A stretch of DNA of 64,000 nucleotides from Escherichia coli (GCF_003334765.1 NZ_QOWT01000012.1), one strand, 5' to 3'. Positions 40,914 through 41,125 are shown, counted from the stretch's first letter. Numbers and translations: made by a program. The notes: generated from the letters alone by a model not told the origin.

Positions 40914-41125
40914 ACAATAGCTCTCTTTTTTTGAATATTGTTTTCTAAGTGACAATTAGCTTGCGACGTGCCGCAAGAAAGATCAACCATCTGGTTGGTT
41001 GATATGCGATAGTGATCACAGGACATTTGATAACTTGATGAAAGTACAAGTTTTTATCCTTTTTACTGGAGCTTCTAATTAATCGGGTTAAGATAGTTAT
41101 CTTGAAGAGGTCGTGGGGAAGCGTT
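40914..41125. promoter_or_regulatory. Divergent promoter/operator region between the island operon and its TetR regulator
   Basis: 212-bp AT-rich spacer containing inverted repeats ATCAACCA-N6-TGGTTGAT (40982-41003) and TTGCG-N6-CGCAA (40961-40976). Confidence 0.6.

Follow-up and report, generated by a model that had tools for sequence, protein, structure and literature searches.

Does the short spacer between a TetR-family gene and a divergently oriented SDR gene of Escherichia coli hold the operator of that regulator, and which of the two flanking genes would such an operator serve? The question arises from a 64,000-nucleotide stretch of E. coli DNA (hereafter, the window), which an earlier sequence-only reading had annotated. 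That reading had located both start codons and the 212-bp spacer between them correctly (Table 1). Further, it had proposed two inverted repeats in the spacer, here called IR1 and IR2, as TetR operators in a divergent promoter.

The ytfA locus and its accessory island

The TetR gene has been named ytfA (PMC6790063; PMC4287617). The papers that we found on YtfA either give the gene its name or treat the remnant in K-12 as a pseudogene; K-12 retains only this pseudogene remnant. The protein has the TetR fold, as it matches many TetR NCBIfam models and its AF2 model (pLDDT 93.9) is all-helical.

The gene and its SDR neighbor belong to an accessory island between rplI and ytfB, and positions 40100-41800 of the window are 100% identical to ATCC 8739-type strains. 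The SDR gene is the first of a putative eight-gene operon, the end of which is probably marked by a strong terminator (Table 1). The TIM-barrel protein of the operon matches uncharacterised structural-genomics entries (3qc0/3ju2, S. meliloti SMc04130) at 1e-84. For the FAD protein, FAD_binding_2 was the sole domain found, and there was no PDB relative at E <= 1e-10. Literature on 7VPF and SMc04130 yielded nothing useful for naming the pathway. Searches of the literature with the motif strings and the gene cluster returned primer matches and unrelated papers, with the exception of the KstR2 paper discussed below. In the window the CoA-transferase gene is a complete ORF of 513 codons, but the annotation of ATCC 8739 gives it as frameshifted (L001, 10835-12375). 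The strain of the window is therefore not ATCC 8739 itself, and in some lineages the operon may be decaying. At the other side of the locus, ytfA (plus strand) and ytfB (minus strand) converge and share 17 bp at their 3' ends (41757-41773).

A 101-bp segment around IR1 was present at >=95% identity in 1542 of 5426 complete E. coli genomes, BL21 included, and most of the 1.7-kb SDR-ytfA segment was present in ~3140 genomes. Thus 28% or more of complete E. coli genomes have the spacer at high identity, BL21 and ETEC H10407 among them, and Salmonella and other enterics carry it as well; the pathway is absent from K-12. A short contig binned as Collinsella (L020, 1283 bp) contains part of a ytfA gene with 100% identity to that of E. 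coli, which probably reflects mis-binning or contamination.

Table 1. Features of the SDR-ytfA spacer and of the flanking genes (positions in the window).
Feature	Position	Strand	Sequence or product	Remark
IR1	40982-41003		ATCAACCA (40982-40989) - TCTGGT - TGGTTGAT (40996-41003)	Perfect 8-bp arms, N6 spacer
16-bp core box	40983-40998		TCAACCA-TC-TGGTTGG	Matches the family consensus TCAACCA-N2-TGGTTGA at 13/14 specified positions
Third, overlapping half-site (+4 register)	40996-41003		TGGTTGAT	Matrix 13.7 bits at 40986
IR2	40960-40977		CTTGCG-N6-CGCAAG	In the spacer/-10 region of the predicted SDR promoter
CRP box	41005-41020		TGCGATAGTGATCACA (minus strand TGTGATCACTATCGCA)	One base right of IR1
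Predicted SDR-operon -35	40981-40986	minus	TTGATC	Inside the left arm of IR1; TTGATC in 10/11 orthologues, TTGTTC in one
Predicted SDR-operon -10	40958-40963	minus	CAAGCT	Exactly 17 bp from the -35 in all orthologues
Predicted SDR-operon TSS	40951 (about +/-2 nt)	minus		Placed by conserved geometry
SDR start codon	40913	minus	ATG	Edge of the spacer
Predicted ytfA -10	41090-41095	plus	TAAGAT	TATGAT, TATAGT or TATAAT in orthologues (TATAAT: Entomohabitans)
Predicted ytfA TSS	~41102	plus		IR1 would lie near -110
ytfA	41126-41773	plus	TetR family, 215 aa	ATG at 41126; PF00440 + PF17938
Putative eight-gene operon	31990-40913	minus		Gene gaps <= ~50 bp or overlaps
SDR	40122-40913	minus		
TIM-barrel protein	39270-40112	minus	Xylose-isomerase-like	
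Enoyl-CoA hydratase	38484-39266	minus		
CoA-transferase	36933-38474	minus	Fused family-I	
FAD_binding_2 oxidoreductase	34855-36936	minus	693 aa	
TRAP small permease (ORF)	34358-34858	minus		
TRAP large permease	33014-34315	minus		
TRAP binding protein	31990-32961	minus		
Strong palindromic terminator	31900-31926	bidirectional		Between the convergent rplI and TRAP binding-protein genes; 12-bp stem, 7 GC pairs, flanking A/T runs

Two inverted repeats in the spacer

Both repeats lie where the earlier reading had placed them: IR1 is a perfect inverted repeat, and the arms of IR2, given as TTGCG-N6-CGCAA at 40961-40976, extend to 6 bp. We counted perfect arms separated by loops of <=12 nt in 5000 dinucleotide-preserving shuffles of the 212-bp spacer. 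Arms of >=8 bp arose in 4.0% of the shuffles, arms of >=6 bp in 45% and arms of >=5 bp in 91%. IR1 taken alone is therefore moderately unusual.

IR1 also contains a second, overlapping dyad that had been missed, CAACCA-TC-TGGTTG (40984-40997), which exists because the right side of IR1 reads TGGTTGGTTGAT. The perfect 8-N6-8 dyad described earlier is composed of the 16-bp core box and the overlapping half-site at its right (Table 1).

The IR1 block is conserved at a fixed distance from the SDR gene

We compared 11 orthologous loci in which an SDR gene and a TetR gene diverge with conserved synteny, the regulators being 60-100% identical. The loci came from E. whittamii, E. albertii, a divergent E. 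coli, Salmonella, Klebsiella spallanzanii, Leminorella, Entomohabitans and two metagenomic contigs; the set also includes a contig deposited as Salmonella enterica, of which the regulator is only 63% identical. The gene order SDR, TIM-barrel protein, enoyl-CoA hydratase and CoA-transferase, with the divergent TetR gene, was kept in all fetched orthologous loci.

When ten of the spacers were aligned (Entomohabitans was examined separately), the most conserved block was AAAGATCAACCA(TC/AA)T(G/A)GTTGGTT, which spans 23 bp (40978-41000), and its flanks diverged. In all 11 loci, 65-71 bp separate the block from the start codon of the SDR gene. This distance is kept in Entomohabitans despite the insertion of ~210 bp between the block and ytfA. 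The insert (L008, about 3700-3960) is GC-rich and repeat-like, lies between the CRP box and the ytfA promoter, and disturbs neither the operator nor the CRP box nor the spacing on the SDR side.

IR2 behaved differently from its proposed role as a second operator. Arms of its length are at chance level in the shuffles, and its right arm was conserved neither in E. whittamii, E. albertii or Salmonella nor in any other orthologue. In the left arm only TGC is conserved, because it is part of the predicted -10 hexamer (CAnnnT, minus strand). As chance suffices to explain IR2, and its conservation fails even within Escherichia, we rejected it as an operator and judge it to be an incidental chance palindrome.

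The box accompanies one type of recognition helix

TetR homologues that are 34-40% identical to YtfA occur in Alphaproteobacteria (Belnapia, Tistrella, Ferrovibrio, Oceanibaculum, a Xanthobacteraceae MAG and others), where the genomic context differs and comprises an SsuA-like binding protein, a NitT/TauT ABC permease and an amidase. Boxes of the form TCAAC-N6-GTTGA, for example ATCAACCAACTGGTTGAT, GTCAACCGGTTGGTTGAC and ATCAAACATTCGGTTGAT, lie directly upstream of the regulator gene, with a second copy directly downstream, and their consensus is TCAACCA-N2-TGGTTGA. In control loci the box was matched at ~0.03 per kb.

A position weight matrix (PWM) was trained only on the alphaproteobacterial boxes. 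Its best match in the 64-kb window was 40982-40999, with 20.96 bits; the maximum of 200 shuffles was 20.65. Further, its best match lay at the homologous position in all 11 orthologous spacers, with 14.7-20.8 bits and a next-best match of <=7 bits. Because the alphaproteobacterial sites had been found by their likeness to IR1, this test is only partly independent, and the independent tests are only the enterobacterial matches and the negative set described below. The window holds other PWM matches, in hflK (7698-7715, 16.2 bits) and in hfq (5756-5773, 15.1 bits). These are intragenic and near the 95th percentile of the shuffled maxima, and we rejected them as probably due to chance.

The box was present at >=14.7 bits in 21 of 21 loci in which the regulator has the helix [S/N]KQ[T/L]VYHHFGNKE. 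In contrast, none of 62 loci with another helix exceeded 13.2 bits, including those of three 34-38% identical homologues in which KR replaces KQ. That the box accompanies the KQ-type helix and no other links it to the protein itself. The box was absent from the alphaproteobacterial loci L009, L017 and L019, which encode KR and not KQ; L009 has a weaker related sequence, ATGAACTGTTTGGTTAAT, of 13.2 bits, 233 bp upstream. The KQ/KR position may be a specificity-determining residue.

IR1 has the properties of a palindromic operator: a length within ~15-30 bp, a location close to the regulator gene (YtfA is encoded 123 bp from IR1) and conservation together with the regulator.

A predicted CRP-dependent promoter of the SDR operon

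The CRP box next to IR1 fits TGTGA-N6-TCACA at 9/10 positions, and the 64-kb window has only one other match of this quality. All orthologues keep the arms of the box, and the sequence between the arms varies. The identical 16-mer is a CRP ChIP-seq site between ETEC_4557 and ETEC_4558 (ETEC-specific/ytfA) in ETEC H10407, showing that this site is bound in vivo (PMC4287617). The second match in the window, TGTGATGAACTTCAAA (30244-30259), also appears in that ChIP-seq table, where it is assigned to yjfY/rpsF (PMC4287617). Most orthologues retain two GATC (Dam) sites, at 40981-40984 (operator/-35) and at 41014-41017 (CRP box); a stretch of 212 bp should contain about one by chance, and they may mean nothing.

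A sigma-70 consensus scan of the spacer gave no match at threshold, the hexamers TTGATC and CAAGCT being weak, and we therefore inferred the promoters from conservation. The order and spacing of CRP box, TTGATC, 17 bp, CAnnnT, leader and ATG were constant in 11 of 11 loci. The -10 variants were CAAGCT, CATCTT, CATTTT and CATCGT, in which C1, A2 and T6 were invariant, and the leader to the SDR start codon was 34-40 nt long (11 loci). The CRP centre lay 60.5-61.5 from the predicted transcription start in every locus and would be at about -61.5 here. The position -61.5 is the classical class I CRP position, as at lac. We predict that the SDR operon has a lac-like class I CRP promoter. On these coordinates the 16-bp box would cover -32 to -47, and because the conserved geometry puts TTGATC inside IR1, bound YtfA would occlude the -35 element.

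Comparative evidence thus strongly supports the proposal that IR1 is a TetR operator overlapping the promoter of the SDR operon, and the neighboring, ChIP-seq-verified CRP site supports the placement of IR1 in a promoter.

The operator would serve the SDR operon rather than ytfA

The term "divergent promoter" used in the earlier reading is only partly apt. IR1 lies on the predicted SDR-operon promoter, but there would really be two separate promoters, with IR1 ~110 bp upstream of the ytfA start. In the predicted -10 of ytfA, T1, A2 and T6 were invariant in the alignment. Among loci, the CRP box and IR1 stand at distances from the ytfA promoter that differ by up to ~210 bp, and no second box above 7 bits was found in any orthologous spacer. 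This variable distance and the lack of a second box suggest that the operator serves the SDR operon. Autoregulation of ytfA is not supported, because IR1 is ~110 bp from the predicted ytfA promoter. In this respect ytfA differs from its alphaproteobacterial homologues, in which the box is directly upstream of the regulator gene. A plus-strand promoter over IR1 and the CRP box (TTGATA-17-GACATT), which would have given a route to autoregulation, was rejected, as E. albertii and Salmonella do not preserve its hexamers.

Two further observations concern the ytfA start region. A palindrome, AAGATA-GT-TATCTT (41090-41103), overlaps the predicted -10 and start; orthologues have ATGAT-AGTC-ATCAT, in which a symmetric A/T to T/A change keeps the dyad. 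Further, TATCTTGA is repeated, at 41098 and right after the ytfA ATG (41129-41136).

Binding register within IR1

The overlapping half-sites of IR1 allow more than one register of binding. The 16-bp core box is most likely the seat of one YtfA dimer, as the N2 spacing in homologues with the same helix favors this core, and a single dimer on the N2 core is the binding register that we think somewhat probable. In the main alternative, IR1 is still the operator of YtfA, but the functional dyad is AACCA-N6-TGGTT, centred at 40992/40993, to which YtfA would bind either in the manner of KstR2 or, as with QacR, as two dimers whose sites overlap.

Several features of the orthologues fit the N6 dyad. 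Its arms of >=5 bp (AACCA/TGGTT) survive in every enterobacterial orthologue (11/11 loci), and they grow to 10 bp in one E. coli lineage (L005). In contrast, the base that corresponds to 40993 is A in most orthologues, which spares the N6 dyad and weakens the N2 dyad; the right arm of the latter is reduced to TAGTTGG in Salmonella, K. spallanzanii, Leminorella and L083-L085. Further, the three-half-site layout of IR1, TGGTTGGTTGA, recurs upstream of the Belnapia homologues.

However, homologues with the same recognition helix keep a strict N2 spacing at 14 sites, and in the orthologous spacers the +4 register scores 5.7-15.2 bits, compared with 14.7-20.8 bits for the N2 core. The outer GAT of the right arm, which belongs to the N6 dyad, is not conserved: in the half-site at 40996-41003, TGGTT is invariant and the terminal GAT is replaced by GGA, GGT, TAG, AAG or AAA among the orthologues. 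The conserved block is also centred nearer to the N2 centre. To our knowledge, a 4-bp change in half-site spacing is normally not accommodated by a TetR dimer, which likewise counts against the N6 register. QacR/IR1, a case of two TetR dimers, is similar in that its operator is longer than a single-dimer site and has overlapping half-sites; at the YtfA locus, however, the extra half-site is only partly conserved.

The comparison with KstR2, a mycobacterial HIP-CoA-responsive TetR repressor (PMC3068626), cuts both ways. KstR2 has palindromic operators in divergent intergenic regions and a gene cluster with a CoA-transferase, an enoyl-CoA hydratase and an SDR, as at the YtfA locus, and the orthologues of Salmonella and Leminorella are annotated as "KstR2" by some pipelines. 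The operators at its own promoter, TATCAACCAAGCGCTTGCTCGG and ...AGCGCTTGGTTGATA (PMC3068626), resemble the outer arms ATCAACCA/TGGTTGAT of IR1 at N6 spacing, a likeness that we treat as a lead only. IR1 matches the 14-bp KstR2 logo AnCAAGnnCTTGnT (PMC3068626) at 7 of 10 positions in the N6 register, but the logo core CAAGnnCTTG is absent. The match between the proteins extends beyond the HTH (residues 7-155), but at E = 1.5e-5 (PDB) the homology is remote, and the YtfA locus has no steroid-degradation genes. A KstR2-like function, as the pipeline names imply, is unsupported by motif or homology. Altogether, we regard the N6 dyad as a possible, if doubtful, register, and hold to the same tentative degree the N6 and two-dimer readings when they are taken together.

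Other readings of IR1

We considered whether IR1 is bound mainly by another regulator, RutR for instance, YtfA not being the relevant protein. RutR regulates pyrimidine catabolism in E. coli and binds a small heterocycle. Its structure (4xk4) is the best fold match of the YtfA model (TM 0.74-0.79), followed by the uncharacterised 3npi. RutR resembles YtfA in that a TetR dimer occupies, or in the case of YtfA would occupy, a 16-bp 7-2-7 palindrome with the core ACCAnnTGGT (TTGACCAnnTGGTCAA for RutR, TCAACCAnnTGGTTGA for YtfA). One dimer binds the RutR box (PMC2475637; PMC2952853), with a footprint of ~26-28 bp (PMC2952853) that is comparable to the 23-bp conserved block at IR1. Of the 14 positions of TTGACCAnnTGGTCAA, IR1 shares 9, among them 4 and 13, which are reportedly decisive (PMC2475637). 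Further, ChIP-chip targets of RutR with 9/14 matches exist (PMC2475637), and RutR is present in all E. coli (PMC6790063). A match of this kind means that some cross-binding of RutR is possible.

Nevertheless, the deviations of IR1 from the RutR box (CA at positions 2-3 and TG at 14-15) are systematic and conserved in 21 of 21 YtfA-type loci, and only regulators with the KQ-type helix are accompanied by the box. YtfA is only ~20% identical to RutR and reaches 37.8 and 33.6 bits on the RutR models, against cut-offs of 368 and 230. The recognition helix of RutR is SKTNLLYYF and differs from that of YtfA (SKQTVYHHF). The targets differ as well, being pyrimidine genes for RutR and, putatively, a CoA-dependent catabolic operon for YtfA. 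Given the 7-2-7 likeness, the systematic differences and the sub-cut-off scores, we class IR1 as RutR-box-like and not as a RutR box. Cross-binding by RutR would leave the family-specific box unexplained, and we think it very unlikely that RutR, or another such regulator, is the main ligand of IR1.

IR1 might instead act in RNA, as a minus-strand hairpin or weak terminator that insulates the SDR operon from antisense or read-through transcription from ytfB. A terminator consensus scan does flag IR1 (8-bp stem, tail CUUUCUU), the RNA fold has -12 kcal/mol with z = -2.1, and L083-L085 have a T-run after IR1 on the minus strand. However, the stem is AT-rich (3 GC of 8 pairs) with a poor tail, and terminator-like matches occur in the region at chance frequency (15 versus 10.1 +/- 3.6). 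The sequence is conserved and the pairing is not: compensatory changes were absent among orthologues, and the outer pairs are lost uncompensated in E. albertii, Salmonella, K. spallanzanii and L083-L085. The same sequence stands beside homologous TetR genes in unrelated alphaproteobacterial contexts, and IR1 lies between the CRP site and the start codon, where a promoter would be expected. An RNA role of this kind is, in our judgment, still less probable than binding by RutR.

That neither palindrome has a regulatory role, both having arisen by chance in an AT-rich spacer, is the least credible reading: IR2 is fully compatible with chance, which we accept for it, and IR1 alone reaches only about p = 0.04 in the shuffles, but its conservation across species and classes and its PWM ranking argue so strongly against chance that for IR1 we take it to be excluded.

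Discussion

We consider it highly probable that IR1 is the operator of YtfA on the SDR-operon promoter, adjoining the CRP site. In the proposed mechanism, a YtfA dimer would bind the 16-bp core box, which overlaps the predicted -35 element of the operon from the SDR gene to the TRAP genes. Bound YtfA would block the contact of sigma-70 with the -35 and that between RNA polymerase and CRP. The operon would then fire only when cAMP-CRP is available (no preferred sugars) and a small-molecule inducer releases YtfA. Such two-condition expression is suggested by the position of the box, which overlaps the predicted -35 and abuts the CRP site at about -61.5.

The predicted arrangement resembles lac-type class I promoters, with CRP at about -61.5, weak hexamers, a pathway-specific repressor and a dual dependence on inducer and cAMP-CRP. 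It differs in the location of the operator, which is at +11 in lac, whereas the TetR-type operator of YtfA would overlap the -35 and abut the CRP site.

As for the inducer, which the earlier reading had predicted to be a pathway substrate or a CoA intermediate, the RutR-like fold of the YtfA model points to a small polar ligand. YtfA also has weak sequence matches beyond the HTH to KstR2 and FadR, which are acyl-CoA sensors, and to PfmR; together with the CoA-transferase of the pathway, these are compatible with a CoA ester. Neither the RutR fold nor the matches to acyl-CoA sensors settles the inducer.

A wider interpretation, which we offer as speculation and think unlikely in its entirety, is that YtfA represents a RutR-like TetR clade with its own box, TCAACCA-N2-TGGTTGA, common to Alpha- and Gammaproteobacteria. 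The third half-site, acquired in enterobacteria, could allow two registers or a dimer of dimers, and YtfA together with CRP would gate a CoA-dependent pathway for a carboxylate imported by the TRAP transporter, the substrate or its CoA ester being the inducer.

A repressor combined with CRP is a standard catabolic switch, so the advance is at the level of annotation and adds no new principle. The pathway is common in gut Enterobacteriaceae, including E. coli BL21, ETEC H10407 and Salmonella, and its uncharacterised accessory operon now has a testable dual-input model, with cAMP-CRP and the inducer of YtfA as the inputs. Deletion of ytfA could switch the operon on and so give a route to its substrate. 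Further, a DNA motif can be assigned to an unstudied TetR subfamily, and this motif is usable for regulon prediction in other bacteria.
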